50,972 nucleotides of DNA from a virus. Lineage: Duplodnaviria; Caudoviricetes. Under the pieces are notes generated by a model. It saw only the letters and a program-made list of their open reading frames with translations, was not told where the DNA came from and did no database searches. A program made the position numbers and the translations under genes. Where the stretch lies: the IMG/VR virus record IMGVR_UViG_3300026191_000002, positions 1 through 50,972 of that record. One strand, written 5' to 3'. This document shows, piece by piece, positions 1 to 50,972 of this stretch. Numbering within the stretch: the first letter of the stretch is position 1; each line of letters begins with the position of its first letter.

Positions 1-29
1 CGCAATGCACTTAGCTTGTTAATTGAATA

Positions 30-45
30 AGCCCCTTCGGGGGCT
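30..45 (+). promoter_or_regulatory. cUUCGg tetraloop hairpin immediately upstream of an RBS
   Basis: AGCCCC-TTCG-GGGGCT; related copies at 50416-50430 and inverted at 46617-46630. Confidence 0.6.
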
Positions 46-58
46 AAGGATAAAAACC

Positions 59-298
59 ATGAAAAATAAATTATCAGATTTAAACAACCATCTTTTTGCA
101 CAACTTGAACGCCTTGGTGATGAAGATATCAAGGGCGATGAATTAAAAGACGAAATTGAGCGCGGCAAGTCGATGGCAAGCGTTGCAAAAGAAATTGTTA
201 GCAATGCAAAGCTGGCGCTTGATGTTGCTGTTAAGTATGACGAGATGAGCCAGAACGCCAAGCAACACGTTGATGGTATGTTATTGGAGAACAGATAA
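59..298 (+). CDS. Conserved phage hypothetical protein (commonly paired with HNH gene)
   Basis: ATG at 59 after AAGGA; MKNKLSDLNNHLFAQLERL motif; stop overlaps the next start. Confidence 0.75.
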   Translation: MKNKLSDLNNHLFAQLERLGDEDIKGDELKDEIERGKSMASVAKEIVSNAKLALDVAVKYDEMSQNAKQHVDGMLLENR

Positions 299-1119
299 TG
301 TTTTCTTACTCAGCGGAACACATTGCTTTTCTTCGTGAGAATTACCCACGCATGACAAGGCCAGAACTCACTGAAGCTTTTAACCAGGCATTTGGTTTAG
401 ACAAGTCTGAGGGTGCCATTAAGAGCACTATCAAGGTGCATCAGATTAAAAGCGGCCGCACATCTGGTAAGCGCCCCGTATCGAGCGAAATCAAATCAAA
501 GCTTTTTAATAAAGGGCAAGTGAAGTTTATTAGCGAAAATTACAAACAAATGAGTCGTAAAGAGTTGCTATCGGCGCTTAACGATAAGTTTGGTCTTTCT
601 ATAACGCTTAGCCAATTAGTGTCTTTTGTTAAAAACCACAAAATAAACTCTGGGCGAAGCGGCTACTTCGTTAAGGGTCAGAAAAGCTGGAACAAAGGCA
701 CGAAAGGTGTTTTGAAAGCAAATTCAGGTTCTTTCAAAAAGGGCGAAAAGCCAGCTAATTATCACCCAGTTGGTCATGAACGGGTTGATTCAAAGGATGG
801 TTATATTCTTGTGAAAGTGGCTGACAAAAACCCTTGGAAATCTAGCAAGTCGGGATGGTACCGCCACAAGCATGTAGTCATTTGGGAGCAGCACAACGGG
901 CCCGTTCCTGAAGGAATGTGCATTAGGTTTAAAGATAACAATAAGCGCAACTTCGATATTAATAACTTGTTTTTAGTTAGTCGCGGTGAACACATAAGGC
1001 TCAACCAAATGGGTTATGGCGAACAGCCAGAAGAGTTAAAGCCAATTGTTATCAACATCGCAAAGCTAGACCAGGCAAGCTTCGACAAAATTAAGCAACT
1101 TAAGGAACAAGCAGCATGA
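298..1119 (+). CDS. HNH endonuclease-family protein with duplicated N-terminal HTH-like repeats
   Basis: WNKG..GSFKKG..PVGHER..DGYILVK..KHVVIWEQHNGPVPEG..FKDNNKRNFDINNL; two ~55-aa N-terminal repeats each ending SGR. Confidence 0.85.
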   Translation: MFSYSAEHIAFLRENYPRMTRPELTEAFNQAFGLDKSEGAIKSTIKVHQIKSGRTSGKRPVSSEIKSKLFNKGQVKFISENYKQMSRKELLSALNDKFGLSITLSQLVSFVKNHKINSGRSGYFVKGQKSWNKGTKGVLKANSGSFKKGEKPANYHPVGHERVDSKDGYILVKVADKNPWKSSKSGWYRHKHVVIWEQHNGPVPEGMCIRFKDNNKRNFDINNLFLVSRGEHIRLNQMGYGEQPEELKPIVINIAKLDQASFDKIKQLKEQAA

Positions 1120-1703
1120 ACAACATTATGTTAGACCTAGAAACAATGGGCAAAGGCTCAAACGCCGCTATCGTGTCAATCGGGGCGGTATTCTTCAACC
1201 CTCTTACTGGTGAGATAGGTGAGCAGTTTTATAAGCGCATTTGGTTAGAGAGCGCTGCCAAGTATGGCGAAATTGATGCGGGTACCGTTGCATGGTGGCT
1301 GAAGCAGAGCGATGAAGCACGCGCTGAGATTAATCACAATGATAGCGTTGGCTTAAGTGAAGCGGTACGCGGATTTAGCGAATTTGTTATAGGTACGGCC
1401 CAATGCTCTTTTGCTGATATTCGAGTATGGGGCAACGGTTGCACATTCGACAATGTAATCATTGCCAACGCATACAAGCAGCTGAAGCTTCAAAAGCCTT
1501 GGTCTTACGCTGGCGATATGGATGTACGAACCATTGTTGAGCTAGGCCGTAAGCTTCTTAATTTCGACCCTAAGAAAGATATGCCGTTTGAAGGTGAAAA
1601 GCATAACGCCCTAGCTGATGCCATTCACCAGGCTAAGTATGTTTCTGCTATTTATCAGAAGTTAGCTGAAGCCACTTATCGCGATGAGGTGAACGCAGCA
1701 TGA
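1116..1703 (+). CDS. DEDDh 3'-5' exonuclease/exoribonuclease (DUF5051-like)
   Basis: MLDLETMG, WGNGCTFD, DVRT and HNALADA motifs. Confidence 0.9.
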   Translation: MNNIMLDLETMGKGSNAAIVSIGAVFFNPLTGEIGEQFYKRIWLESAAKYGEIDAGTVAWWLKQSDEARAEINHNDSVGLSEAVRGFSEFVIGTAQCSFADIRVWGNGCTFDNVIIANAYKQLKLQKPWSYAGDMDVRTIVELGRKLLNFDPKKDMPFEGEKHNALADAIHQAKYVSAIYQKLAEATYRDEVNAA

Positions 1704-1891
1704 AGCGCCAGATATTCGTTAACGGAAAGCCCCACTACGCCAGCGCGCAGCTAGTGGGTAAAGTTCAAAGCATGGTTGAGCATAATTACACAACCATGCA
1801 GATAGCAGAGCAGATCAGCAGAACGCGAGGTTTTACCCAAAAACTGGTTATGTCGATTAAAGTTGAAGCGCAAATGGGGAGAGTGGCGTGA
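1700..1891 (+). CDS. Small HTH-like hypothetical protein; homolog of 50442-50630
   Basis: Coupled start/stop; same length and identical AQMGRVA end as 50442-50630. Confidence 0.75.
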   Translation: MKRQIFVNGKPHYASAQLVGKVQSMVEHNYTTMQIAEQISRTRGFTQKLVMSIKVEAQMGRVA

Positions 1892-1899
1892 GTGAATTA
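1871..1899 (+). repeat. Repeat D: 29-bp gene-junction repeat, second copy at 50610-50638
   Basis: CAAATGGGGAGAGTGGCGTGAGTGAATTA is identical at both sites. Confidence 0.95.
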
Positions 1900-2361
1900 G
1901 TAAAATGCGCAACGTGCAAAACTGAAAAGCCAGTCAGTGAAATGCAGACCTGCCTGCACGCTGGTTGGGAATATAGTGTTTGTGATATGCCCTGCATGAT
2001 TAAGTTTTATAAAGGGGAAATAAAGCCAGATATCGTTATCACGCCCGACTTAGAGGAAATGGTCAGGCTTGGAATGAACCCGAAAGAATACCACTTACAC
2101 AAGGAAAATTTAGAGTTAACTGAGCAACTAGCAAAAGCTAATGAGCGTGTGAAGGAGTTGGAGAAAGAAAGAGAAACAGGTTACGAGGTTTGGCAAGCCA
2201 ATTATCAGGCTCTAAAAGATTCAATGAGTTTAACTACTTGCTACGAGTGCGGCACACGAGTTTACGAACTATCACCGCGCAGCCGTTGCTGTATGTGCGA
2301 ATACGGTAGGGCGCAATTCAACGAGCGTGAGAACGAACAACTACGCAAGGAGCAAGAGTGA
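1888..2361 (+). CDS. Modular hypothetical protein (Cys-rich N module, EQLAKANERV linker, Cys-rich C module, EQLRKEQE tail)
   Basis: ORF coupled at both ends; contains repeats A and B. Confidence 0.75.
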   Translation: MSELVKCATCKTEKPVSEMQTCLHAGWEYSVCDMPCMIKFYKGEIKPDIVITPDLEEMVRLGMNPKEYHLHKENLELTEQLAKANERVKELEKERETGYEVWQANYQALKDSMSLTTCYECGTRVYELSPRSRCCMCEYGRAQFNERENEQLRKEQE

Positions 2362-2630
2362 TGGGCAAAGGCAATGAGAAAGAAAAGTTTTACTGCCCAT
2401 TTTGCGATTTGCCGCTAAACGGTAAACGCCATGAATATGAGAGTATGGCATTTGACTTGTACGCTTGTGAGTATGATGCATCTCGAAGCGAAAAGAGACC
2501 AATTTCTGAGTTAGAAAAGAACGAAAAAAATATAGCGGAAATGAAAAAAGAACGTAGCCGAATGTATAAGTTAATAAAGCAGCTCAAAGCAAGAAATGAA
2601 GAAATCGAAAAACTACGTGAGGAGCAATAG
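2358..2630 (+). CDS. Hypothetical protein (CPFC motif plus coiled coil)
   Basis: Starts in a repeat B copy and ends in a degenerate one. Confidence 0.7.
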   Translation: MMGKGNEKEKFYCPFCDLPLNGKRHEYESMAFDLYACEYDASRSEKRPISELEKNEKNIAEMKKERSRMYKLIKQLKARNEEIEKLREEQ

Positions 2631-3091
2631 TGATGACTTTGTGGTCAGACGGTAAAACAAGCGAAGAAATTCAAAAACTATCAGAAGTTGATGGTAACTC
2701 TGTCGCGTATAACCTGCACGAAGACTTGCTATGTGTAAAAGAAGATTTAGCAAAGGCTAATGAGCGTGTGAGGGAGTTGGAGCAAGCTAATTTGGAGCTA
2801 GCTGCTAACGTTGAAGCATGTTGTGAGCTAACCGATATGGATATGGGCGCAGCAATAGAAAGGCTTTTCGAGATTGACAATACAGAGTCAAAAGCACTGC
2901 TAAACAAATTCGCCATAGAGAAGAAGCAAGAGGCTATCTTAACAATCAAAGACAAGTGGATTAAAAAAGCGTCTGAAATGCCGCCACAGCTTGAATGCAG
3001 AAGCAAAGGCTATAGCTGTTATAACTGGGCGATGTTTTATGCAAGAGAGTTAACAGATGAAGCAGAACAACTACGCAAGGAGCAAGAGTGA
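2630..3091 (+). CDS. Modular hypothetical protein (repeats A, C and B)
   Basis: LAKANERV, LNKFAIEK and EQLRKEQE in one frame. Confidence 0.75.
   Translation: MMTLWSDGKTSEEIQKLSEVDGNSVAYNLHEDLLCVKEDLAKANERVRELEQANLELAANVEACCELTDMDMGAAIERLFEIDNTESKALLNKFAIEKKQEAILTIKDKWIKKASEMPPQLECRSKGYSCYNWAMFYARELTDEAEQLRKEQE
2899..2922 (+). repeat. Repeat C: 24 bp encoding LNKFAIEK, second copy at 3812-3835
   Basis: GCTAAACAAATTCGCCATAGAGAA is identical at both sites. Confidence 0.95.
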
Positions 3092-3282
3092 TGGGGTATT
3101 GTGCCGTTCCATACAAAGAATTACCAGATGTTTGCAGAACATGCAGATTCAGAGATTTTGATGCCGCAGATGAATACTCAAATTTTTGGCATTACTGCAC
3201 AAAGGGTTTATATATCCCAACAAAGAAAAACTCATGTAAAGTCAAAGATAAGCAACTACGCAAGGAGCAAAGCAATGATTGA
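3088..3282 (+). CDS. Small Cys-rich hypothetical protein
   Basis: Bounded by two repeat B copies; CxxC..C..C pattern. Confidence 0.7.
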   Translation: MMGYCAVPYKELPDVCRTCRFRDFDAADEYSNFWHYCTKGLYIPTKKNSCKVKDKQLRKEQSND

Positions 3283-3637
3283 GAAATTAGAATGCACTTG
3301 CATCGAAGCATACAAAACAAGAAAAATGCGTGACCCGAATTGTTGCGCTTGTTCGTGTGACCACAATGATTTAGTAGAGCAACTAGCAAAGGCTAATGAG
3401 CGTGTTGATGGCCTTGAAAAGGCACTGGCAAATTGCGCAGATGCTTTGTACGAAAGCAACATAAATCACAAAAAAGCTATTGATAAGATACAAGCAGAAT
3501 GCATTGATGTCTTATTTGATTTTGCTGCAAAAAGAGATGATTCAGGATTTGCTATAGCTCTGTATGAGCAGCCATATGAAATTCAGGATGCCATAAGGAC
3601 ATTCAAGCAACTAAGCAAGGATCAATCAAATGGGTAA
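3275..3637 (+). CDS. Modular hypothetical protein (Cys-rich N module, repeat A, C module)
   Basis: ATG at 3275 follows the AAGGAG of repeat B; preferred to the track start at 3101. Confidence 0.75.
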   Translation: MIEKLECTCIEAYKTRKMRDPNCCACSCDHNDLVEQLAKANERVDGLEKALANCADALYESNINHKKAIDKIQAECIDVLFDFAAKRDDSGFAIALYEQPYEIQDAIRTFKQLSKDQSNG

Positions 3638-3953
3638 CGGTGTAACAGTAAAAAACACAGCATCGGTAAGTCAGCGTGATGTTGTTGACTCACTAACAAA
3701 GCAACTAGCAAAGGCTAATGAGCGTGTTGCGCTACTTGAGCGAGTTGAAAAGATTTTTAATGAATCACCAGAACTAACCTTCGAAAACGTGAAGGTCATG
3801 TTCAATGATGAGCTAAACAAATTCGCCATAGAGAAACAACTAGAGACAGCGAAGAAGTGTGCTTTTGGTAGCACCAGCTGGGTTTTAGAGCATATAAAGT
3901 TTCTGGAAGAACAACTACGCAAGGAACAAGATCATGAAAAAACTAAAAGCTAA
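3630..3953 (+). CDS. Modular hypothetical protein (repeats A, C and B)
   Basis: KQLAKANERV, LNKFAIEK and EQLRKEQ in one frame. Confidence 0.75.
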   Translation: MGNGVTVKNTASVSQRDVVDSLTKQLAKANERVALLERVEKIFNESPELTFENVKVMFNDELNKFAIEKQLETAKKCAFGSTSWVLEHIKFLEEQLRKEQDHEKTKS

Positions 3954-4152
3954 ACAGCTAGGCCCGTGGTGTTCGTTCTGTGCACCTAAAACGACTAGAG
4001 CTGTTTATCGTGAAAATGGTTTTGCCGATAAGTTCGCTTGCTCTGAGCATAAGAGCGATTTAGCTCAACATGAGCGCCAGAAAGCCGAGCGAGAGGAACA
4101 TCTTACTGAAGCCGACTATCAGACTTGGATGAGGTTATGGGATTATGCTTAA
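3934..4152 (+). CDS. Small Zn-finger-like hypothetical protein
   Basis: CxxC...CxxH pattern; starts after repeat B. Confidence 0.7.
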   Translation: MKKLKAKQLGPWCSFCAPKTTRAVYRENGFADKFACSEHKSDLAQHERQKAEREEHLTEADYQTWMRLWDYA

Positions 4153-4420
4153 TCTGAAAGAAGGTGAGATTTATTACTCTATTGAAGACCTCAAAGGATA
4201 CGAGGTTGTAACGTATAGAAGTGGGTATTGGTACTTATGTTGCTTTAAGGTTACTTGTTCAGCAATAAAGCATATCTTTGATATGACTCCTCAAGAAGAA
4301 TTCTCTAAAAAGTTTTTTACTTCTCACTTAGATGCGATGGAGGCTAATTACAAGCGTCAAAAAAGCCAAGCATTAAAGGCATTAGAAGTGGTGAAGAAGC
4401 TACGCAAGGAGCAAGAGTGA
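4145..4420 (+). CDS. Hypothetical protein ending in repeat B
   Basis: Coupled ORF ending KLRKEQE. Confidence 0.7.
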   Translation: MLNLKEGEIYYSIEDLKGYEVVTYRSGYWYLCCFKVTCSAIKHIFDMTPQEEFSKKFFTSHLDAMEANYKRQKSQALKALEVVKKLRKEQE

Positions 4421-4701
4421 TGTTTAGTCAAATGGTCGATAGCTTGGTAAATAAGCTAAAAAGCGCTGGCTATAAGTCATCAGGTAGTTATACCGGTGAT
4501 TTGACAGTATTGAGCGGCTACAACAAAGACGAGATAGCTGCGGCTAGACAAGCAATAGCGGAGTGGTTACAAGACAACCACAACGACCTTGCAGTTGAGA
4601 ACGAAGCGCTAAAGCAAAAGCTTTTTATCTGTAATGAAATCATCAGCAAATCGAATTTTGCACCGATGACGGTGCCGCTAGTGGGGAAATCCAATGACTA
4701 A
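4417..4701 (+). CDS. Hypothetical protein
   Basis: Starts within repeat B; overlaps the next gene. Confidence 0.7.
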   Translation: MMFSQMVDSLVNKLKSAGYKSSGSYTGDLTVLSGYNKDEIAAARQAIAEWLQDNHNDLAVENEALKQKLFICNEIISKSNFAPMTVPLVGKSND

Positions 4702-5194
4702 ACGCAAAGCAAACACCCCAATCAAGCGCAAGCAGATGATTGCCCGTACTGCGCTTAAAAACCTTTGTATAGCTATGGTGCTAGGCGAAGCAAAGTATTG
4801 CACGGTAATGAATTACAAATCGTGCAATGAAGTTAAGGTTTCTCAGCAAGTCGCTGAACTTATCGCTGGCCTTCCGTGGAAATGGTATTTCGAGTGCTCA
4901 GTAGTATGTCGTGACCAAAACGGCAAAGAGTACATCGTTAGCGAAACGGTTCATTGTGAGTCAGCTTATCGCCAGTCTGACCCAAGACTTAACGACTTTC
5001 TAAACACGCACCACAAAGCGTTTTTAGCAAAGCAGAATAACCTACACGTTATTACGCTGGCATGGGTAGCCGTTCCCGCCATCGGTGACAAAGTAGATTT
5101 AGAAATTGAAACACTAGATAAGATTTACACCAAGCTAGGTGCGTTTGAATATCTATCTACGTGGGAAAATAACCAGTTGGAGGATGCGGCGTGA
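4694..5194 (+). CDS. Phage hypothetical protein
   Basis: 166-aa ORF coupled at both ends. Confidence 0.75.
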   Translation: MTKRKANTPIKRKQMIARTALKNLCIAMVLGEAKYCTVMNYKSCNEVKVSQQVAELIAGLPWKWYFECSVVCRDQNGKEYIVSETVHCESAYRQSDPRLNDFLNTHHKAFLAKQNNLHVITLAWVAVPAIGDKVDLEIETLDKIYTKLGAFEYLSTWENNQLEDAA

Positions 5195-5454
5195 GTGAGT
5201 CTGTTTTAGTTCGCCATCAAAGCTTCAAATGCCGCCATAACAGATACATAGTTGACCCAAGATTAAGTGTTGTTGAGTGCGGTATATGTGGCGAAAAACT
5301 TAATCCAATGTGGGTTTTAGAGCAACTTTGCGGTAGAGAAAATCGAGCGGCTGACAGGCTTGAATTCCTTAATAAGCAAGCAGAAAAAGCCATAAACAAA
5401 AATCGTTGCAAGTGTGAAAAGTGTGGCGAAATGACAAGAATTCAAAGGAGCTAA
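5191..5454 (+). CDS. Zn-ribbon hypothetical protein
   Basis: CxH..CGIC..CKCEKC motifs. Confidence 0.7.
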   Translation: MSESVLVRHQSFKCRHNRYIVDPRLSVVECGICGEKLNPMWVLEQLCGRENRAADRLEFLNKQAEKAINKNRCKCEKCGEMTRIQRS

Positions 5455-5457
5455 TCA

Positions 5458-5670
5458 ATGACTAACCAAGAGATCTTAGCTAATGGGCCTGAAGGCTGGA
5501 CTGGTATTTATATTTCAGATGGCTTCTACCGCTGGATTATGGAAGACGGTACTCACTCAAACCTCATCAGCAATGAAGCTTACTGCAACGCCCAAAGTCA
5601 CGAACGAAGCCGCGATGACATTGAGCGAATCGTCTATCTTGAAAGTGTATTGAAGGGGGAAGCAGCGTGA
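5458..5670 (+). CDS. Hypothetical protein
   Basis: AAGGAG RBS; ends EAA overlapping the next GTG. Confidence 0.7.
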   Translation: MTNQEILANGPEGWTGIYISDGFYRWIMEDGTHSNLISNEAYCNAQSHERSRDDIERIVYLESVLKGEAA

Positions 5671-5834
5671 AATTAAGCCACTTTAAGTCTATGTCAAAAC
5701 TTCGAGTGATCTTCTATCTCGTAGTTCTCATCATTTGCCTTGCTAGTTCCTATCACAGTATAAATGTGTACATTGAATGTGAAGGAGAAGTCCTACGAGG
5801 TATGTTCAAACTTGTGTGTGTTGAGGGTAATTAA
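5667..5834 (+). CDS. Small membrane protein (55 aa, not in ORF track)
   Basis: GTG overlaps the previous stop; hydrophobic VIFYLVVLIICLA stretch; fills the gap exactly. Confidence 0.6.
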   Translation: MKLSHFKSMSKLRVIFYLVVLIICLASSYHSINVYIECEGEVLRGMFKLVCVEGN

Positions 5835-6041
5835 GTGAATGACTTTCTTTCCGATCAAGAAATTGAAGAACTTACTGGCGCTAAACAAGTGAGTAAGCAA
5901 AAAGAGATCTTAACAAAGAATCGAATATACTTTGTTGAACGCACAGATGGAAAAATAAAAGTGTGCTGGCACCACGTTCACAACCCTATGGTTGATAAAC
6001 AGTCTGGTACAGATTCGCTAATTAATTGGGAAGCAGCATGA
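5835..6041 (+). CDS. Putative excisionase (DUF4224-like)
   Basis: FLSDQEIEELTG..Q...L....I.F..R.DG pattern; directly upstream of the integrase. Confidence 0.75.
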   Translation: MNDFLSDQEIEELTGAKQVSKQKEILTKNRIYFVERTDGKIKVCWHHVHNPMVDKQSGTDSLINWEAA

Positions 6042-7036
6042 CCAGAAGGAAAAGCCGTAAAGACGCATGGATGCCGCCGCGTGTATACAGAGGTAAATCA
6101 GCTTATGAGTATCACCCTAAAGGGGGTGGTGCTATTAGGCTTTGCAAACTCGATGCAAAGAACTGGGAGGTATTAAAAGCCCACGAAGATGCAGTTCAGG
6201 CGCTTGAAGCTAAAGAGAACCTTTCAGGTTTGGTAAGCGACTTTTTTGAAAGCGCTGATTTCTCTGATTTATCGAAAACTACGCAAGCTGATTACCGCAA
6301 GTATAGCCGTAAGGTTTTATCGGTATTTGGTAAAGTTCACCCCGATAACTTAGAGCCTCGTCACGTTCGCGCTTATATGGATAAGCGTGGTGCTAAATCG
6401 AAGACACAAGCCAACCGTGAAAAGGCTTTTCTTTCTCGTTGCTACCGTTGGGCTTACGAACGCGGCCTAGTTAAACAGAACCCATGCAAAGGCGTTAAAC
6501 AGTTTAAAGAAACTGCCAGAGATAGATACGTTGAAGACTGGGAATACAAAGCAGTATTTGAAAACGCCCCACCCCACGTGCAAGCAGCAATGGAGATAAG
6601 CTATTTGTGCGCGGCGCGTAAAGGTGATGTTCTATCAATGACGTGGGACCAAATACGCGATGAAGGTATTTTCATTCAGCAAGGCAAGACCAATGTAAAG
6701 CAAATTAAGGAATGGACCCCACGCCTTAGAAAAGCTATTGAGTTAGCCAAATCGCTGAGAACGGGAAATATTATTAGCCGCTGGGTTATCTGCCAGGCTA
6801 ACGGGAAGTGTTACACAGGTCGAGGTTTCGATCAGGGTTGGATGGATGCGCGTGAAGCAGCTCGAGCAAAAACCAACATGGCGTTAGATTTCACGTTCCA
6901 TGATTTGAAAGCGAAGTCTATCAGTGATTATGAAGGTAGCACGAAAGAGAAACAGATCTTCTCTGGCCATAAAACAGAGCGACAAGTTAATACTTACGAT
7001 AGGAAAGTGAAAGTTGTTCCTAGCCTAAAAAGGTGA
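6038..7036 (+). CDS. int: Tyrosine recombinase (phage integrase)
   Basis: AARKGD, QGKT, FHDLKAK, SGHK and C-terminal Tyr motifs; adjacent to attP; ATG at 6038 overlaps the upstream stop. Confidence 0.95.
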   Translation: MTRRKSRKDAWMPPRVYRGKSAYEYHPKGGGAIRLCKLDAKNWEVLKAHEDAVQALEAKENLSGLVSDFFESADFSDLSKTTQADYRKYSRKVLSVFGKVHPDNLEPRHVRAYMDKRGAKSKTQANREKAFLSRCYRWAYERGLVKQNPCKGVKQFKETARDRYVEDWEYKAVFENAPPHVQAAMEISYLCAARKGDVLSMTWDQIRDEGIFIQQGKTNVKQIKEWTPRLRKAIELAKSLRTGNIISRWVICQANGKCYTGRGFDQGWMDAREAARAKTNMALDFTFHDLKAKSISDYEGSTKEKQIFSGHKTERQVNTYDRKVKVVPSLKR

Positions 7037-7051
7037 TTATAGCAAAAAAGC

Positions 7052-7305
7052 GTTAGGAAAGTTGTTAGGAAAGGTTGGTCACAAAGAATTAAACGACTGA
7101 CCTTTAAAGTTTTAAAGCGTTGTTTTTAAAGGTTTTTTGATTGGTGCCCGGGGCCGGACTTGAACCGGCACGCTGTTACCAGCGAGGGATTTTAAATCCG
7201 TATGAACAGGCTAGTAAACACACAGGCTTGATAGGTACTGTTCCTAACAAAATTCATTGTTTAAGTGTTTGATTTGTCGTATTTGAGAGAGTTCTTGTTA
7301 GGAAA
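7052..7305. promoter_or_regulatory. Putative integrase arm-type sites (GTTAGGAA) and IHF site flanking the att core
   Basis: GTTAGGAAAG at 7052-7061 and 7064-7073, inverted copy at 7241-7250, direct copy at 7295-7305; AATCAAACACTTA on minus at 7262-7274 fits WATCAANNNNTTR. Confidence 0.7.
7142..7199 (-). other. attP core: 3' half of tRNA-Leu(TAA)
   Basis: Minus strand GGATTTAAAATCCCTCGCTGGTAACAGCGTGCCGGTTCAAGTCCGGCCCCGGGCACCA gives anticodon arm, long variable arm, T arm and CCA; no 5' half. Confidence 0.92.
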
Positions 7306-7329
7306 TAAAAGGCGTCCTTGCCCAAAGAT

Positions 7330-9930
7330 TTATGCGGCGTCTTCAACTCTATAGCTAAGCGGCTTATATCCAGATGTTGCGTTAGAAGCAACTACTAGTC
7401 CACGCGTATCAGAACCAACATAAAGCACAATCATGAACGTTGGCTGAATGCTATCCCTACCGCCTGTTGGTATATCCAAATCACCAAGGCGAGCAAGGAT
7501 CTTACTTCCATCAATTTTAATTGAGTCGCTATTCTCATTACTGATTTTTTTGCCATCTGCAATAACTTCGACCTTAGCAATTCCATTCTGGGTTAAATCC
7601 AAATAGCCACCAGCGGTTACAATGCCGGCAACAGAACTTGGCTTAAGTTGCATAACCTCTCTGTTTGATCGGCCTTTGTAAGCTACCAAGCTGCCCTGCG
7701 TCACCAACTCAAAGTCCAACGTTTCCATTGTGCTCAATATTTCATTTTCCTGTAATGCTGCAACTTCGACTAAAACTGTATCTGTAGATGTTGCACCTTC
7801 GCTATCCTGTGCTTGAACTCGAAACTCTAATGTTTGTGCAGTTAATGAACTAGGTGCCGTGAACTCTGGGGTAGCTGTGTTAGCAAATTCAAGAACTACT
7901 GCATCTGCTCCGTTATCAACCTGTTCCCAACCGAATTGAGAAATTGAACCATCTTCTGGGTCGGTGCTCATTGATGCATTTAATTGAACCCGAACACCAG
8001 CTGCAACTGATTGGTCGGGGCCAGCGTTTGCGACTGGGGGTTGGTTTGGACCTTGAACGGCGAAACTTTGCGTAATTCTAGGGCTAGAATCGTCTTCATC
8101 ACTGGTAACTAGTCCGATTTCATAGCTGCCCGCCACATCGATATTAATGTCGAAATTCTTAGCTGTAGGTTCAGCTATAGTAGCGTTTGAAGTTGCAGGT
8201 TTACTATCTATTGCCCATTGATACTGAATGTCACCCGCTTGACCAAAACCAATACCTTCAATAATGACGGTTATGGGGTCAGCAGCCTCGGCATTCTCTA
8301 TTTCAATGAACGGCACGTACTCACCGTTTAACATGCCGGAAGCATCAACAAATCCACGTTCGGTGTCTTTACTTAAGAGTGATACACGGTCCTCTGTTGG
8401 CATCCAGCGTAAACCGTAGCTTGTGGGTGCTTGGGCTGATTCGCCGTTAGTGTACGAGCCGCCATAACCGATACGGTCAAACGGGTAACTGGTGGTACTC
8501 TCCACACCACCTACTTTTTGAATAACGGTTAACTGTCTATCCAAATCGCTCGAGCTTTCAAAACTGGTGTAAACGACGTCTTGGGCGTCCAGCGCTGAAC
8601 CACGGATGTAGTCTTTGGCAAAACCTGCGTGCGGCTTCCAGTAGTCAAACGTAGTCAGTCGCGCATTTAACCAGGTTACATCCAACATTTTCATGTTGGT
8701 TGATACATCCGGCAAATAGAATCCCTCACGCTCACCAGCTGCTAATGTTAATTCCAAACCATTTGCAGTAAACGCAATAGAACCCTGTCCAGTCATTCGT
8801 TTTACATTAGCAGGCAAAGACGATGCGCCGATAAACGAAATATCCTCTCGTTCAGGGCATGGCGGGTCGAGCAGTGGAAGTGAACCGTCCACCAATTCAA
8901 ATTCCATCAGGCCAATAGCGCCAACCGCAGTAGTAGATGTTCCAGCACCTACAGCGCGGTAAACCTTAAACTTGCGCCCTTGATATTTAAGTGTATCTCT
9001 TAGTACGACTTGGTTAACTGCGTCTGGCCCTCCTTGAGCAGGCTCACCAGCGTAACTTAAACGCGTAAATCCATCGTCGGCAACTAGCACAGGAATAGAA
9101 AAGCGCGGCACGAGTTGCGCGCCCCCTTCGCCTTGCTCTCTTATTTCCGCTAGCGCCAATAGTGAACCATCGTCTTGCTTTACAAGGCTAGACGGGCTTA
9201 GGGTCATCACTAACTCTGGGTTGGTGTATCCAGATACGTTTTCAACTACGCGACCAACGTCTTTCTTCCATACCTGTAGCAATTCCCATTGATTGGTGAC
9301 AACGTCTGTGCCCCATAACGCTGAATAGTCACCTGCAATACTGTAACCGATGTATGTGTGAGGGTAATTGAGTTTACCGTCATTAACATCCCATTCGAAA
9401 TAGCCCGTGTGTCCGGTACCAGCACCGAAACGAGGATCATACGTCAGCACATAACCCTGTCTGGTGAAATTAATACCGTCAGATGATGTGGCTATTGCCG
9501 TTGTCTGCTCCCTAATATCACCACCGTCATAACTAGGGCCACTATTATTATGCGTTGTTAAATAGACCACACCGTCAATGACACGCGCGCACGGCGTTTC
9601 TGTCTGCGTTCCTGCTGAAACCGTATCGATATAAACGGGGTTACCACTGGGTTTGCTGGGCAAATAATCAAAATCACCATTGGCGATAGCCGTGTCGTAA
9701 TCCACCCAATTATTAGAATCTGTCGGATCACCTGAAACCAGCACCGCCCACGTACCACCACTGCCATTTACGTGGTCCGTGGAGAAATACAAAATCCAGT
9801 CATACGGTGCTTGCCAGCCTGTAATATTAGCCGTTGGGATAATCGTTGGTGAAAAGCATCCACGATTAGAGCCTTGACTTGCAGGGCGCTCAACGACAAT
9901 TCCCCTGTCTGTAAATTGATATTTAAGCAT
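7330..9930 (-). CDS. Tail-end protein: putative beta-propeller glycoside hydrolase, lectin-like and PKD/Ig domains
   Basis: LYFSTDH, QTETP and ATSSDGINFT (Asp-box-like) motifs; NQPPVANAGPDQSV PKD motif; ATG at 9930 with AAGGA (track start 9945). Confidence 0.65.
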   Translation of the reverse strand: MLKYQFTDRGIVVERPASQGSNRGCFSPTIIPTANITGWQAPYDWILYFSTDHVNGSGGTWAVLVSGDPTDSNNWVDYDTAIANGDFDYLPSKPSGNPVYIDTVSAGTQTETPCARVIDGVVYLTTHNNSGPSYDGGDIREQTTAIATSSDGINFTRQGYVLTYDPRFGAGTGHTGYFEWDVNDGKLNYPHTYIGYSIAGDYSALWGTDVVTNQWELLQVWKKDVGRVVENVSGYTNPELVMTLSPSSLVKQDDGSLLALAEIREQGEGGAQLVPRFSIPVLVADDGFTRLSYAGEPAQGGPDAVNQVVLRDTLKYQGRKFKVYRAVGAGTSTTAVGAIGLMEFELVDGSLPLLDPPCPEREDISFIGASSLPANVKRMTGQGSIAFTANGLELTLAAGEREGFYLPDVSTNMKMLDVTWLNARLTTFDYWKPHAGFAKDYIRGSALDAQDVVYTSFESSSDLDRQLTVIQKVGGVESTTSYPFDRIGYGGSYTNGESAQAPTSYGLRWMPTEDRVSLLSKDTERGFVDASGMLNGEYVPFIEIENAEAADPITVIIEGIGFGQAGDIQYQWAIDSKPATSNATIAEPTAKNFDINIDVAGSYEIGLVTSDEDDSSPRITQSFAVQGPNQPPVANAGPDQSVAAGVRVQLNASMSTDPEDGSISQFGWEQVDNGADAVVLEFANTATPEFTAPSSLTAQTLEFRVQAQDSEGATSTDTVLVEVAALQENEILSTMETLDFELVTQGSLVAYKGRSNREVMQLKPSSVAGIVTAGGYLDLTQNGIAKVEVIADGKKISNENSDSIKIDGSKILARLGDLDIPTGGRDSIQPTFMIVLYVGSDTRGLVVASNATSGYKPLSYRVEDAA

Positions 9931-46995: not shown

Positions 46996-47153
46996 TTTTC
47001 GTTACTTACAAAGAGTATCACAAGGCGCTTGCAGAAAAGCGTATGTGGAAAGCATTGGGGCTTCACGCAATGGTTGTTAACCGTCCTAACGGTTGGAAAG
47101 TGAAAGTAATCGGTTTAGTTAAAAATATCAAAGGAGTAAGCAATCATGGATAA
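46992..47153 (+). CDS. Small basic hypothetical protein (53 aa, not in track)
   Basis: GTG coupled to the previous stop; fills the gap to recT. Confidence 0.55.
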   Translation: MIFVTYKEYHKALAEKRMWKALGLHAMVVNRPNGWKVKVIGLVKNIKGVSNHG

Positions 47154-48060
47154 CCAACAACTAGCGCCAATTGAAATGTTTCGCCGCGACCTGCAAAAAG
47201 AAGGTTCGCGTTTGAAAGCCAGTTTGCCAGCACACTTACCATTAGAGCGCTTCCAGCGTGCCGCAATGATAGCGGTTGAAAACAACATGGAATTACTAGC
47301 TTGCGACCCTCAAAGCCTAATGACTTCTTTAAGCCGCTGTGCGCAAGACGGTCTTGTACCTGATAACCGCGAAGCAGCCATGGTTATATTTAACACCAAG
47401 AGCGGAAACAACTGGGTAAAGAAAGCTCAGTATATGCCTATGGTCGATGGTGTTCTAAAACGCGCTCGCCAGTCTGGTGAAATATCCACAATTACGGCAC
47501 GCGCAGTTTACGAGAACGACCAATTTGATTACTGGATTGATGAAGACGGTGAACACGTTCAATTCAGACCTAACCTACATGGCGACCGCGGCAGTTTTAA
47601 ACTTGTTTTTGCTATGGCTAAAACCAAGTCGGGCGAGTTGATTGTTGAACCTATGTCAAAAGACGAGGTTGAAAAGGTTCGCATGTCTTCAAAGAACCCC
47701 GACAAAGGGCCATGGAAAGACTGGTATGAGCGCATGGCATGTAAATCTGTATTGCACCGTCTATCACGCCGACTACCTAACAGTAGTGAGATTATGGAAA
47801 TGCTAAAGCATGACCATGAGGGCTACACCTTTTCAAATACTCGTGAAGAAAAGCCTATCAATGAAGCGCCAGTGATAAACGAAAAGCCTGTTTACACGCA
47901 GGAAATGTTTAACGGCGAAGCCAACAAGTGGGCTAACGCAGTAAGCGCAGGGAAAATCACGCCTGAAGCGATTATTACCAAGCTATCGGCATCTTATGAA
48001 GTTCCTTCAAAAGTCCGTGAGCAGATTGAAACCATTGTAGACGTAGCAGAGGAAGCGTAA
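47146..48060 (+). CDS. recT: RecT-family single-strand annealing protein
   Basis: LPAHL..ERF.R, CAQDGL.PD.REA, VYENDQF and GPW..WY..MA.KSVL.RL..RLP motifs. Confidence 0.92.
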   Translation: MDNQQLAPIEMFRRDLQKEGSRLKASLPAHLPLERFQRAAMIAVENNMELLACDPQSLMTSLSRCAQDGLVPDNREAAMVIFNTKSGNNWVKKAQYMPMVDGVLKRARQSGEISTITARAVYENDQFDYWIDEDGEHVQFRPNLHGDRGSFKLVFAMAKTKSGELIVEPMSKDEVEKVRMSSKNPDKGPWKDWYERMACKSVLHRLSRRLPNSSEIMEMLKHDHEGYTFSNTREEKPINEAPVINEKPVYTQEMFNGEANKWANAVSAGKITPEAIITKLSASYEVPSKVREQIETIVDVAEEA

Positions 48061-48062
48061 CC

Positions 48063-49757
48063 ATGAAGCATATTAACGTTACCCAAGGAAGCGAAGCTTG
48101 GCTAAAACTTCGTAAAGATTTTTTCACCGCATCAGAAGCCCCAATGATGATGGGTGATCACAAAAACATTAGTCGCAACCAATTGCTAGATGCAAAGAAA
48201 GGCTGGACCACGATTGTAGACGAGTATCTACAAAAGCTTTTTGATAAAGGTCATGCAACTGAAGAAGCGGCTCGCCCTCTTGCTGCCGCCGATGTAGGTG
48301 AAGATTTATTCCCTGTTACCGGCTCACTAGAGGTTGAAGGCTTATCGCTACTTGCCAGCTTTGACGGTTTAACCATGTTTGATGATGTGTGTTTTGAGCA
48401 TAAGCTTTTCAACAAAACGCTTGCTGAGAACGTGCTTAATAACGTGCTAGAGCCTCACTACTATTGGCAGTTAGAGCAGCAACTATTAGTGTCTGGTGCG
48501 GATAAGTGCTACTTCGTTACCAGTGATGGCACGAAAGACAACTGGCAAGCAATGTATTACGTGTCAGTTCCTGAAAGACGCGAAGCGCTTATTAAAGGCT
48601 GGAAGCAATTCGCCATTGACTTAGAAAACCATGAGCCCCAGGCAAAAGTTGAGAAAACCGTTACCTCTGGTCCAGTACGCGAACTGCCATCCATCAACTA
48701 CAAAATGAATGGCTTAGCACTAGAGTCAAACCTAGAAGCGTACAAGCAAGCAGCAACTGACCTTGTGGCGCTATCTGAAAAGCCTCTTGAATCAGATCAA
48801 GACTTTGCCGATGCAGAAGCGCGTCAAAAGGTTTTCACCAAAGCAGAGAAGGACATTAAAAACGCATGTGATCGCGTTATGGGCGAGATTGATTCAATCG
48901 ATAACTTTGTAAAAGACATGCGCTTTATCTCTGAACAGATTCGCCAAGCGCGACTAGCTGAAGGTAAGCAAATCAAAGCGCGTAAAGAAGAATTGCGCGA
49001 AGAGATTCTTAACAAGGCTAATCAAGAAGCTTCAAAGGCGCTTAACGAGGCGATGGCAAAAGTTAACGCCAAACTGCCCAACATAGACTTTGACCCTTTC
49101 ACGGCCATGAAAGGCAAGCGCACTATTGAGTCACTTCAAGACGCGGCTGACACCGAAGTCGCAAAAGCAAAAATTCAAATCAATGAGTTCGTTGAAGTAG
49201 CACAAGCCAACATGCTTGTTATTGCCGATAACCGCGAGTTCGATTTCCTCTTTAACGACTGGGCCCAAATTGCTTTCAAAGCAACTGAGGATTTCAAGAC
49301 GTTGGTAACGGCTCGCATTGCAACTTACCAGGCTGAACAAAAAGCCAAAGAAGATGCAGAACGTGAACGCATTCGTCAAGAAGAGCAAGCGAAGCTGCAA
49401 CGTGAAGCTGAAGCGAAAGCGCGAGCAGAAGAGCAAGCCAAGCGTGATGCGGAAGAGAAAGCCCGTTTTGATGCTGAGTCAGAAAGCAACAAGCAGTACA
49501 TGGCAGCAACAAACCAGTTAGCACAGGAAGCAACCACCAATGAGCCAAAAGAAGAAGTTCAGCCAGAACCGCAAACGAAGCCAGCGCCTAGCGTGGTTCG
49601 ACAAGAACAAGCACCAACGCGCCAATACTCAGTAATGGAGCTTAACGCTATGGATCAGCTAGCCAAGCTAGTTGAAGAAGCCAACAAGACTTACGCAAAT
49701 GACCTACGCCAGTTCGTTGAATCGGTTAAGGCTAACAACTTGAAGAAGGTGGCGTGA
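48063..49757 (+). CDS. YqaJ/lambda-exonuclease-family nuclease with long coiled-coil C terminus
   Basis: QGSEAWL..R...TASEA, GH..E, ASFDG, FEHK and YYWQLEQQL motifs. Confidence 0.9.
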   Translation: MKHINVTQGSEAWLKLRKDFFTASEAPMMMGDHKNISRNQLLDAKKGWTTIVDEYLQKLFDKGHATEEAARPLAAADVGEDLFPVTGSLEVEGLSLLASFDGLTMFDDVCFEHKLFNKTLAENVLNNVLEPHYYWQLEQQLLVSGADKCYFVTSDGTKDNWQAMYYVSVPERREALIKGWKQFAIDLENHEPQAKVEKTVTSGPVRELPSINYKMNGLALESNLEAYKQAATDLVALSEKPLESDQDFADAEARQKVFTKAEKDIKNACDRVMGEIDSIDNFVKDMRFISEQIRQARLAEGKQIKARKEELREEILNKANQEASKALNEAMAKVNAKLPNIDFDPFTAMKGKRTIESLQDAADTEVAKAKIQINEFVEVAQANMLVIADNREFDFLFNDWAQIAFKATEDFKTLVTARIATYQAEQKAKEDAERERIRQEEQAKLQREAEAKARAEEQAKRDAEEKARFDAESESNKQYMAATNQLAQEATTNEPKEEVQPEPQTKPAPSVVRQEQAPTRQYSVMELNAMDQLAKLVEEANKTYANDLRQFVESVKANNLKKVA

Positions 49758-49981
49758 TGTTTTTAATCGAATATGGCAAAGGTCATTTTATTAACGCAGA
49801 CATTATTACTTCGGTCCATATCGACAAAAAAGGAGTGCGTTTCTACGTTGTGAACGACTATGAAAGTGAATTTAACGTAGAAGAGGGTTACGAGAATACG
49901 TTTTGCAACAACCTTCAGGCGATAAATCAGAACATTACGAACATCGAGTCTGAGCTAAGAGGTATCAGAAATGGCAATTAA
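49754..49981 (+). CDS. Hypothetical protein
   Basis: Coupled ORF; FINAD.I motif. Confidence 0.7.
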   Translation: MMFLIEYGKGHFINADIITSVHIDKKGVRFYVVNDYESEFNVEEGYENTFCNNLQAINQNITNIESELRGIRNGN

Positions 49982-50360
49982 CACTCACGGCCAGCGCATT
50001 CAGTTTGGCAAGCATAAGGGCGAGTTGTTCACTCGCCTGCCGGTAAGTTACTTTAAATGGATGGTTAATGAAAACGCACCACAAGCTGATATCGCCAAGG
50101 CAGAATTTGAACGCCGTGGCGATACCATGCCAGAAGTTGAGCTATCAGGCCATGCAATTGATAACGCGTCCATTCGGGTTAGAAAGATATGGCATGAAAC
50201 CAAGAATGAGAATGAGGGAATTTACTCTTGGCTTCAACGCATGACCAAAGAATCGCTAGAAGCAAACAACGTTCATAACGGCAAATACAAGCATAAAGGC
50301 ATGAAGCTAGTTATTGAGCAAGGTGAAGAGTTTCCTGTTCTAAAAACAATTATGCGATAG
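49971..50360 (+). CDS. Hypothetical protein with FGKHKG (DUF3820-like) motif
   Basis: IQFGKHKGE....P.SY.KWM. Confidence 0.75.
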   Translation: MAINTHGQRIQFGKHKGELFTRLPVSYFKWMVNENAPQADIAKAEFERRGDTMPEVELSGHAIDNASIRVRKIWHETKNENEGIYSWLQRMTKESLEANNVHNGKYKHKGMKLVIEQGEEFPVLKTIMR

Positions 50361-50441
50361 AGGCGGCTTAGGCCACCTCTGTAACTTTTCTTACTAAAAG
50401 GTAAAGAATATTACACCCCTTCGGGGGCTAAAGGGAAACCC

Positions 50442-50630
50442 ATGACTACAATCATAATAAACAACAAGCCAATACGCATTCATGCCACTGTGGTAGCACG
50501 TGTTCAGAATCTACTAGAAGCGGGTGAAAGTATTGAAACGGTGCGCCAGAAAACAGGGCTTTCAAAAGGTCGCGCATCGGCATTAATCGACACTATTCAA
50601 GGTCAAGCACAAATGGGGAGAGTGGCGTGA
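50442..50630 (+). CDS. Small HTH-like hypothetical protein; homolog of 1700-1891
   Basis: Ends AQMGRVA within repeat D. Confidence 0.75.
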   Translation: MTTIIINNKPIRIHATVVARVQNLLEAGESIETVRQKTGLSKGRASALIDTIQGQAQMGRVA

Positions 50631-50972
50631 GTGAATTACAAGACATGCTTCGCGTACAAGCTAGGCTCCACAGAAAGCAAGGTGCTAATGCCTTGGGTGA
50701 TTTGTTCCAATCTGCCGCTCTGGAAATTGAGATATTAACGGAACGCCTAGAAAACCCGCAAGGATTGCAGGAATTGATTTGCGTTGAGCAAATGAAAGAA
50801 ATTTCTTTGCCTGAAATACATCGAGCAAATCAAAAGCTTCACGAACAACTAGCAAAGGCTAATGAGCGTGTTGATGGCCTTGAAAAGGCACTGGCAAATT
50901 GCGCAGATGCTTTGTACGAAAGCAACATAAATCACAAAAAAGCTATTGATAAGATACAAGCAGAATGCATTG
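50627..50972 (+). CDS. Modular protein truncated by the window end (new N module, repeat A, same C module as 3275-3637)
   Basis: GTG at 50627, MSELQDMLRVQ...HEQLAKANERVDGLEKAL... open to the end. Confidence 0.8.
   Translation, partial: MSELQDMLRVQARLHRKQGANALGDLFQSAALEIEILTERLENPQGLQELICVEQMKEISLPEIHRANQKLHEQLAKANERVDGLEKALANCADALYESNINHKKAIDKIQAECI
50846..50972 (+). repeat. 127-bp end identical to internal 3380-3506
   Basis: Base-by-base identity starting at CAACTAGC of repeat A; the preceding base differs. Confidence 0.97.

Follow-up and report, generated by a model that had tools for sequence, protein, structure and literature searches.

Short conserved sequences at module boundaries have had a place in the explanation of phage mosaicism since the modular theory of Susskind and Botstein of 1978 (ref 22 in PMC3029335), and the 2001 study of HK620 by Clark et al. 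(ref 21 there) also deals with these boundary, or linker, sequences of lambdoid phages; passages of PMC3029335 relate that joining guided by linkers has been argued against random illegitimate joining plus selection ever since, the usual objection being that linkers are not found at most boundaries. Here we describe an array of small genes, at positions 1871 to 4422 of the phage record IMGVR_UViG_3300026191_000002, in which such joints recur with great regularity. The record is a single contig of 50,972 bases, which is all there is for this genome and which we call the window. The genes of the array are interchangeable pieces separated by four short DNA islands, of which A and C lie inside genes and B and D at gene ends. 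We consider it probable, at roughly 0.7, that these repeats serve as frame-preserving joints for homologous recombination and represent a very regular instance of the boundary-sequence idea.

As with the lambdoid boundary sequences, short conserved DNA lies between unrelated modules, homologous exchange at such sequences is proposed to yield viable mosaics, and two of the joints (B and D) stand at gene ends. Unlike them, two of the four joints are intragenic and in frame, the order A-C-B is fixed, dozens of module families are involved, and the joints are common to unrelated phage types of one host genus. Exchange between phage modules guided by boundary sequences is an old idea; what distinguishes the present case is the regularity, the ordered in-frame set of three islands together with a gene-end joint that bears a ribosome-binding site, the near-complete loss of linkage across about 22 nucleotides (nt), and the sharing by unrelated phage types. 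A literature search returned no description of these islands in Alteromonas phages, although supplementary files lay outside its scope and unpublished status is thus unproven, and the passages covered of the paper on the AD45 phages make no mention of them.

Three other described systems are close to this one. The PeSL cassettes of T4-type phages are intergenic units of ~100 bp that combine a promoter with a stem-loop terminator, according to passages of Arbiol et al. 2010 (PMC2839356). They share with the islands the arrangement of repeated motifs around small orphan genes in plastic regions, where recombination deletes, inserts and replaces genes while providing expression signals, but the islands differ in being ~22-nt coding or ribosome-binding-site stretches without promoter or terminator signal. 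Membership in the PeSL class was rejected on these grounds: in positions 1–7400 of the window there are 4 promoter-like sites against 12.2 expected and 2 terminator-like sites against 7.8 expected, none of them at island copies, and the RNA folding of six island contexts is no better than that of shuffled sequences (z from −1.73 to +1.04), with no hairpin signal. The gp38 adhesins of T-even phages carry conserved motifs between hypervariable segments in one reading frame, as passages of Trojet et al. 2011 describe (PMC3157838). Recombination between conserved in-frame motifs swaps segments there, which is the likeness to the present locus; the difference is that gp38 is a virion protein of host recognition with glycine-rich structural motifs, whereas the array encodes small early proteins predicted to be helical, and here it is the motif DNA that is conserved and not the peptide only. 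The tail-fibre motifs of T-even phages were reportedly also treated by Tetart et al. in 1998. Finally, Ea22 is presented in passages of PMC10834534 as a mosaic of a variable N-terminal end, a coiled coil and unrelated C-terminal domains. The array resembles the lambdoid Ea22 region in lying between recombination (exo) and integration genes, and its members would by position be early accessory genes; none of 10 array proteins matched Ead_Ea22 (PF13935) at E ≤ 0.1, and the Atlas score to Ea22, 0.78, is a lead only.

Results

Four islands join the genes of the array

The initial annotation, made from the sequence alone, had described about nine short genes with unrelated bodies joined by near-identical repeats. 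Nine genes with unrelated bodies, g1 to g9, are indeed present between 1888 and 4701, and the window holds seven copies of B, five of A, two of C and two of D, all on the plus strand, where the chance expectation is zero (Table 1). The 18-nt core of B, CAACTACGCAAGGAGCAA, accounts for seven copies at no more than 3 mismatches, the most diverged being that at 2610, and the full 26-nt B pattern matches 3 times against 0.00 expected in shuffles. Each copy forms the 3′ end of an open reading frame (ORF) with the tail QLRKEQ (EQLRKEQE), and contains AAGGAG 5–8 nt before the ATG or GTG of the next gene; B also supplies the overlapping stop/start for that gene, in line with its description as a gene-end repeat with a Shine-Dalgarno sequence and a stop/start overlap.

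Island A, of 26 nt, matches 5 times at no more than 3 mismatches against 0.00 expected in 100 shuffles, with four copies in the array and one at 50846, all mid-gene and in frame. Its peptide motif is QLAKANERV except at 2744, where a copy with 3 mismatches reads DLAKANERV. Island C, of 24 nt, encodes LNKFAIEK and occurs, as had been reported, in two mid-gene copies, which are identical. Island D, the fourth, consists of the end of a 63-residue gene and the GTG start of the first array gene. The core that A and B had been said to share is real: the two consensus sequences have 18 of 30 positions in common without gaps, including GAACAACTA and AAGG. Where they occur together, A, C and B invariably follow in that order and frame.

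The DNA of the islands is itself conserved

Relatives were fetched by exact-pattern scans of a viral contig collection, which gave 28 stretches with A and 27 with B. Profiles over distinct copies (59 of A, 88 of B and 36 of C) show cores of ~22 nt at ≥90% consensus with sharp edges and flanks at 0.3–0.6, that is, conserved DNA between unrelated flanks, as in boundary sequences. In B the conservation reaches 12 nt upstream of AAGGAG, through GAACAACTACGC.

That the DNA and not only the peptide is conserved had been proposed from the window, and the synonymous positions bear this out. Only cells in which the residue is kept were counted, the expectation was taken from local codon usage, and seeding bias was reduced by drawing A copies from loci fetched with B or with the peptide, B copies from loci fetched with A or with the peptide, and C copies, C never having been a DNA seed, from all loci. 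The consensus codon was used in 208 of 231 cells in A (82.6 expected), 268 of 279 in B (117.1 expected) and 166 of 177 in C (64.8 expected), in copies that are not independent events, though they sit in unrelated contexts. Three contigs brought in solely by a degenerate peptide scan carry the same codons.

Homology breaks and modules change partners at the islands

Gene order among the relatives is not fixed, and the ends of homology pile up on the islands. All-against-all blastn, run after the removal of 4 near-duplicate loci, yielded 396 matches (≥60 nt, ≥75% identity), and 281 of the 482 unique homology ends within array spans fell in island zones, which make up 15.7% of positions. When the arrays were cut at the islands and the pieces clustered (152 clusters, 61 of them recurrent), recurrent module families with at least two partners numbered 14 of 14 and 18 of 18 across A, 6 of 6 and 8 of 8 across C, and 18 of 19 and 18 of 19 across B. 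Pairs of copies that share the left module, the right module or both number 38, 23 and 0 for A (59 copies), 17, 10 and 0 for C, and 28, 37 and 1 for B. This diversity of partners, together with sharing on the left or the right only, upholds the proposal that exchange involves whole genes (B to B) or modules (at A or C). The two outcomes that the initial annotation had named as refuting it, a fixed gene order with unrelated breakpoints and free variation at synonymous sites, are both contradicted by the relatives.

The exchanges are recent, to judge from same-family modules in differing contexts, of which 62 of 128 reach ≥95% identity; some modules are 100% identical over 48–136 nt with different neighbours on both sides. 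Homologues of g1 in a large protein collection (n = 41) match the N half only (26) or the C half only (15), and none matches both; the homology of the N half stops at residue 77–79 in all 26, the motif starting at residue 80, and the homologues carry 21 distinct post-A modules. The A-to-B part of g1 is 87% identical to Alteromonas phages AD45-P3 and AD45-P4. P24, PB15 and the window each have a different post-A module behind the N module of g5 (MIEKLECTC..), which in loci L007 and L022 as well is joined to others than that of g5; an N module beginning MSNAxIPDQLHH.. has different post-A modules in AD45-P3 and in a 103,910-bp contig that is putatively AD45-P1. The A-to-C module of g3 recurs in L037 and L047 with different modules before A and after C, L024 and L047 have the post-C module of g6 after A-to-C modules different from its own, and the VSELQDML.. 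N module at the right end of the window is joined to another post-A module in L019. Within the islands, mismatches are fewer in the half that adjoins the shared module than in the other half, which fits exchange at or within the homology. Breakpoints on conserved stretches, as proposed for boundary sequences, are thus seen in the homology ends, the partner diversity, the breaks in protein homology and the diverging contigs described next.

Two variants merged in the contig

The last 127 nt of the window (50846–50972) are identical to 3380–3506, and the 10 nt preceding each differ, from which it follows that the assembly runs through two variants and passes from one to the other at an A copy. 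The simplest reading is that two co-occurring phage variants with common sequence from the A copy at 3380 onward were written as one path, the other variant having recT-recE-g0′ and then a gene in which A connects the N module with the C module of g5. The record has the look of a loop of ~47.5 kb with a 3.4-kb tail and not of one molecule; the stretch 1871–4422 itself is continuous in it.

Public runs, all of them in the form of contigs, were aligned to positions 1–7100. In run X1, possibly the source sample, and in X14, which belongs to a different study and bears an organism label, one contig each connects 1899 with 3380 through 207 letters of other sequence, which is the arrangement at the right end of the window; in X14 this alternative junction lies within a single contig. 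A 33-kb contig of X3 fits 1–2364 without difference and stops at a B copy, and in a 3,516-nt contig of the same run the first 548 letters fit 3066–3613 and the remaining ~2,970 find no place on the stretch. Loose contig ends fall at 2338, 2356 and 2627 (B copies), at 3730 (just after A) and at 3807 (just before C). Contig depths in X1 are 8.8–13.2 on 23–3409, 49.8–51.3 on 3380–6933 and 42.4 at the alternative junction, a crude measure that gives only a hint that the stretch 1871–4422 belongs to the rarer variant. In place of the recT-recE of the commoner variant, this rarer one may have a left arm of ssb type (window 1–22; P24, locus L001, 5414–6022). Many apparent joints between island copies in the run contigs were rejected as deletions, since their sides are shorter than 30 letters and the middle is unread, and they are most likely other family members that match the islands only; parts left uncovered in X3, X5 and X14 are not evidence of absence.

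In another X1 contig, 52 and 1115 are separated by just 3 letters of other sequence, implying a co-occurring variant without 53–1114, a segment that holds a 91-residue ORF (23..298) and nearly all of the HNH gene. Presence and absence of such a segment is the pattern expected of a free-standing homing endonuclease.

The islands occur in unrelated Alteromonas phages

Among GenBank phages, a 41-nt A context or a 37-nt B context finds at E ≤ 1e-3 Alteromonas phages only, everything else listed having E ≥ 0.5. The carriers, P24, PB15, XX1924, ZP6, AD45-P1 to AD45-P4, PT11-V19, PT11-V22 and R22Y, differ greatly in genome size and are of unrelated types. The commonest layout is a single ORF in which a variable N module is followed by A, C and B, with one variable segment between A and C and another between C and B; when 18 A-to-B parts were aligned, only the three islands were conserved, mean column identity being 31%. 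An unbiased count of 14-mers over 45 loci finds B in 38 loci, A in 36 and C in 25, and the next word in 11. Every A copy (49 of 49) falls in an open frame in which the motif is read, and within each source all island copies are on one strand (45 of 45 sources). Scanning genome contigs with the peptide pattern and profile gave 147 stretches that matched the pattern, of which 1 was confirmed, on a 27,754-bp contig of a metagenome-assembled genome.

In the region 2309–2530 of ZP6 (L065, 38 kb, genus Mareflavirus), a perfect 30-nt B closes a small hypothetical gene and provides the start region of the gene for a superfamily II helicase, so that the joint also serves before a gene of core replication.

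Genomic context and payload proteins

The closest named relatives of the window are Alteromonas phages P24, AD45-P3 and AD45-P4, and its gene content is that of a temperate phage type. The array is by its position the accessory early-gene region of a temperate Alteromonas phage, placed between recT-recE and the integrase gene, and the order is recT, recE, a gene for a 129-residue protein, g0′, array, int. In the window recT and recE are directly upstream of the array, and among relatives whose flanks reach far enough RecT homologues occur in 8 loci and RecE homologues in 13. Homologues of g0 precede arrays in 10–11 loci; g0 itself has 0 family matches in Pfam and PHROG. Features of the window are collected in Table 1.

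Table 1. Genes, island copies and neighbouring features of the window
Feature	Positions	Strand	Protein	Content and matches
HNH endonuclease	298..1119	+		left end
3′-5′ exonuclease		+		left end
g0	1700..1891	+	63 aa	conserved gene preceding the array; last bases and the GTG of g1 form D (1871-1896)
g1	1888..2361	+	157 aa, 10 Cys	N module; A 2125-2150; C module (CYEC..CCMC); B 2338-2355 (full joint to 2363)
g2	2361..2630	+	89 aa, 3 Cys	whole-gene cassette between two B joints; own B 2610-2627, most diverged
g3	2633..3091	+	152 aa, 5 Cys	full layout: A 2744-2769; C 2899-2922; B 3068-3085
g4	3091..3282	+	63 aa, 5 Cys	whole-gene cassette ending in B 3253-3270
g5	3275..3637	+	120 aa, 8 Cys	N module MIEKLECTC..; A 3380-3405; C module; B 3608-3625
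g6	3630..3953	+	107 aa, 1 Cys	A 3702-3727; C 3812-3835; B 3912-3929
g7	3934..4152	+	72 aa, 3 Cys	without island at its end; matches phrog_9585 (no assigned function)
g8	4145..4420	+	91 aa, 3 Cys	ends in B 4397-4414 (full joint to 4422)
g9	4420..4701	+	93 aa, 1 Cys	first gene past the last B copy; without island at its end
Tyrosine integrase	6026..7036	+		PF00589, E 9.6e-09; closes the same-strand early gene block
Structural-size genes		-		between the left-end and right-end plus-strand blocks
CI-like repressor	43586..	+		right end
Anti-repressor		+		right end
RecT-family single-strand annealing protein	47146..48060	+		PF03837, E 2e-39; phrog_148
RecE/YqaJ-like recombination exonuclease	48063..49757	+		PF09588, E 1.4e-08; phrog_7655, E 1.8e-150
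129-residue protein	49971-50360		129 aa	weak QSregVF_b match (quorum-sensing-regulated virulence factor), E 1.4e-05
Hairpin word	50410-50432			CCCCTTCGGGGG
g0′	50442..50630	+		second, diverged copy of the array-leading gene; ends in D 50610-50635
First array gene of second variant	50627..50972	+		cut by contig end; N module VSELQDML..; A 50846-50871, then 101 nt identical to the post-A module of g5

No homologue of the 129-residue protein between recE and g0′ was found in the fetched loci. Just upstream of g0′ stands a GC-rich hairpin word, the fourth most shared 14-mer (11 of 45 loci), possibly a terminator or a site of processing that precedes the array.

No array gene matched a Pfam family or a PHROG of known function. 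Several of the products are Cys-rich, as had been pointed out (g1 and g5 above all, followed by g3 and g4), and the payload proteins as a group are predicted to be helical, often with Cys-rich N modules. An AlphaFold2 model of the part of g6 from A to the end has 4 helices (predicted local distance difference test score, pLDDT, 83.2; predicted template modelling score, pTM, 0.67), with 0 matches to the PDB at E ≤ 0.001, and the best Atlas matches for the payload are unnamed viral clusters at 0.87–0.88, which are leads only. With a profile of the A-to-B part, a collection of 1.84 billion proteins yielded 296 representatives at E ≤ 0.001; the matching region sits nearer their C terminus, and the N extensions in front of it differ in length. 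By position, the counterparts of the payload genes in lambdoid phages would be the exo-xis accessory genes, and the role of the payload is likely to be in early host takeover, decision modulation or counter-defence.

Discussion

Exchange by homologous recombination at the islands could proceed as follows. In a cell that contains two phages, or a phage together with a prophage, after co-infection or superinfection of a lysogen, homologous recombination would pair like islands, the joining enzyme most likely being the phage's own RecT/RecE annealing system and otherwise the host RecA. A single exchange would trade the whole arm that lies to one side of the island, a pair of exchanges at adjacent islands would replace one module of 50–300 nt or a whole gene, and unequal exchange between copies within one array would delete, duplicate or fuse genes and change the length of the array. 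Because the frame and the translation signals lie inside the islands, every product of exchange would be an intact, translated gene. Modules with intact islands would spread to new genomes and those with decayed islands would not, and this, together with repeated conversion, would render the islands identical at synonymous sites.

Several points weigh against this explanation. The minimal homology for Red- and RecA-dependent recombination is put at ~30 bp in passages of PMC2327257, and the ~22-nt cores are at or below it, so that efficiency should be low unless the semi-conserved flanks help. The island carriers include lytic phage types, in which RecT was not searched for, and on that account a phage annealase may be dispensable. 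Of the homology ends, 201 of 482 lie outside island zones; the island copies are related by descent, so that the counts are not counts of independent events; and all of the evidence for recombination is comparative, with no event directly observed. Exact A or B patterns brought in most of the loci, a bias for which the cross-ascertainment, island C and the three peptide-seeded loci are only a partial control. Lastly, the AAGGAG and start codon of B have an obvious translational role, and since they serve translation, part of the conservation of B is explained without recombination.

This last point leads to an explanation that we regard as unlikely, in which the islands are kept for some other function of DNA or RNA (translation initiation or coupling for B; a regulator, small RNA or nuclease site for A and C) and recombination is a by-product. 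It can draw on the AAGGAG of B and the next start codon at the right spacing, and on the fact that any conserved stretch, whatever conserves it, attracts homologous exchange. It does not account for the conservation of B over the 12 nt upstream of AAGGAG, nor for A and C, which lie mid-gene where no start codon is in use and for which no candidate binding factor is known; moreover, 0 Rfam families match the window, and the islands show neither a folding signal nor promoter or terminator signals. That the islands are simply the conserved motifs of a diverging protein domain, with DNA identity due to recent common descent, is scarcely plausible, even though the A-to-B profile gathers 296 representatives and the model is that of a coherent helical domain: nothing aligns between the motifs (31% mean column identity), the synonymous sites of the motifs nevertheless remain at ~90–96% consensus, neighbouring modules are unlinked, and near-identical modules occur in different contexts. 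Still less credible is the idea that assemblers mis-joined metagenome contigs at short repeats and so mimicked shuffling. The contig of the window is itself a path through two variants meeting at a repeat, and many of the loci and proteins are metagenomic, but cultured, clonally sequenced phages (P24, PB15, AD45-P3 and the contig that is putatively AD45-P1) show the same swaps at A and X14 holds the alternative junction in a single contig. Repeats of the size of the islands are also shorter than the k-mers of most final assemblies.

The movement of cassettes by a dedicated site-specific system, with an unrecognised recombinase or nuclease acting in the manner of an integron or shufflon, is very improbable. 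The array does look like a set of cassettes, with one orientation, short repeated joints and unrelated payloads, and a tyrosine integrase and an HNH endonuclease are encoded nearby. The four island sequences, however, are unrelated to one another and have no inverted-repeat or hairpin architecture; they are found in unrelated phage types with no common recombinase seen, in genomes across which no search for one was made; a co-occurring variant lacks 53–1114, the segment that holds the HNH gene; and the asymmetry of mismatches within islands fits exchange at or within homology. Integrons combine attC sites, which are imperfect palindromes, with an IntI integrase and its attI site. The array resembles integron cassette arrays in its unrelated small genes, set in one orientation between short repeated joints, and the earlier comparison to an integron-like library stands as an analogy of outcome; it does not extend to the machinery, as no integron feature is present, there being neither an IntI-type system nor attC-like palindromes, and the joints lie in coding sequence. 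An integron was rejected because the islands give no hairpin signal and are in coding sequence; for the integrase, the comparison was with general models of phage integrases, which it matches, and did not include IntI-specific features. A shufflon was rejected because inverted repeats would be expected, yet all island copies are on one strand in every source. None of 10 context proteins scanned matched a reverse transcriptase model, as a diversity-generating retroelement would have, and no further search was made.

Homologous recombination at frame-preserving joints remains the explanation we prefer, and a broader one can be built on it. Unrelated Alteromonas phage families would then share A, C and B as standard in-frame adaptors, kept because the modules they flank can be copied between phages by annealase-type recombination, and together would hold a host-genus-wide combinatorial library of N domains, coils, tails and whole genes, probably in an arms race with host defences. 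We put this forward tentatively, as a possibility that we would not yet favour over its negation.

The locus is a system in which linkers are obvious, short, in frame and reused, and several of its carriers are in culture, which makes the question of whether linkers guide the joining of phage modules directly testable. It displays the shuffling of protein domains at a resolution of 50–300 nt, and the 296 representative clusters indicate that unstudied early phage proteins are numerous. If it is true that the phages of one host genus hold a common library of this kind, it would be nature's equivalent of recombineering by means of short homology arms.

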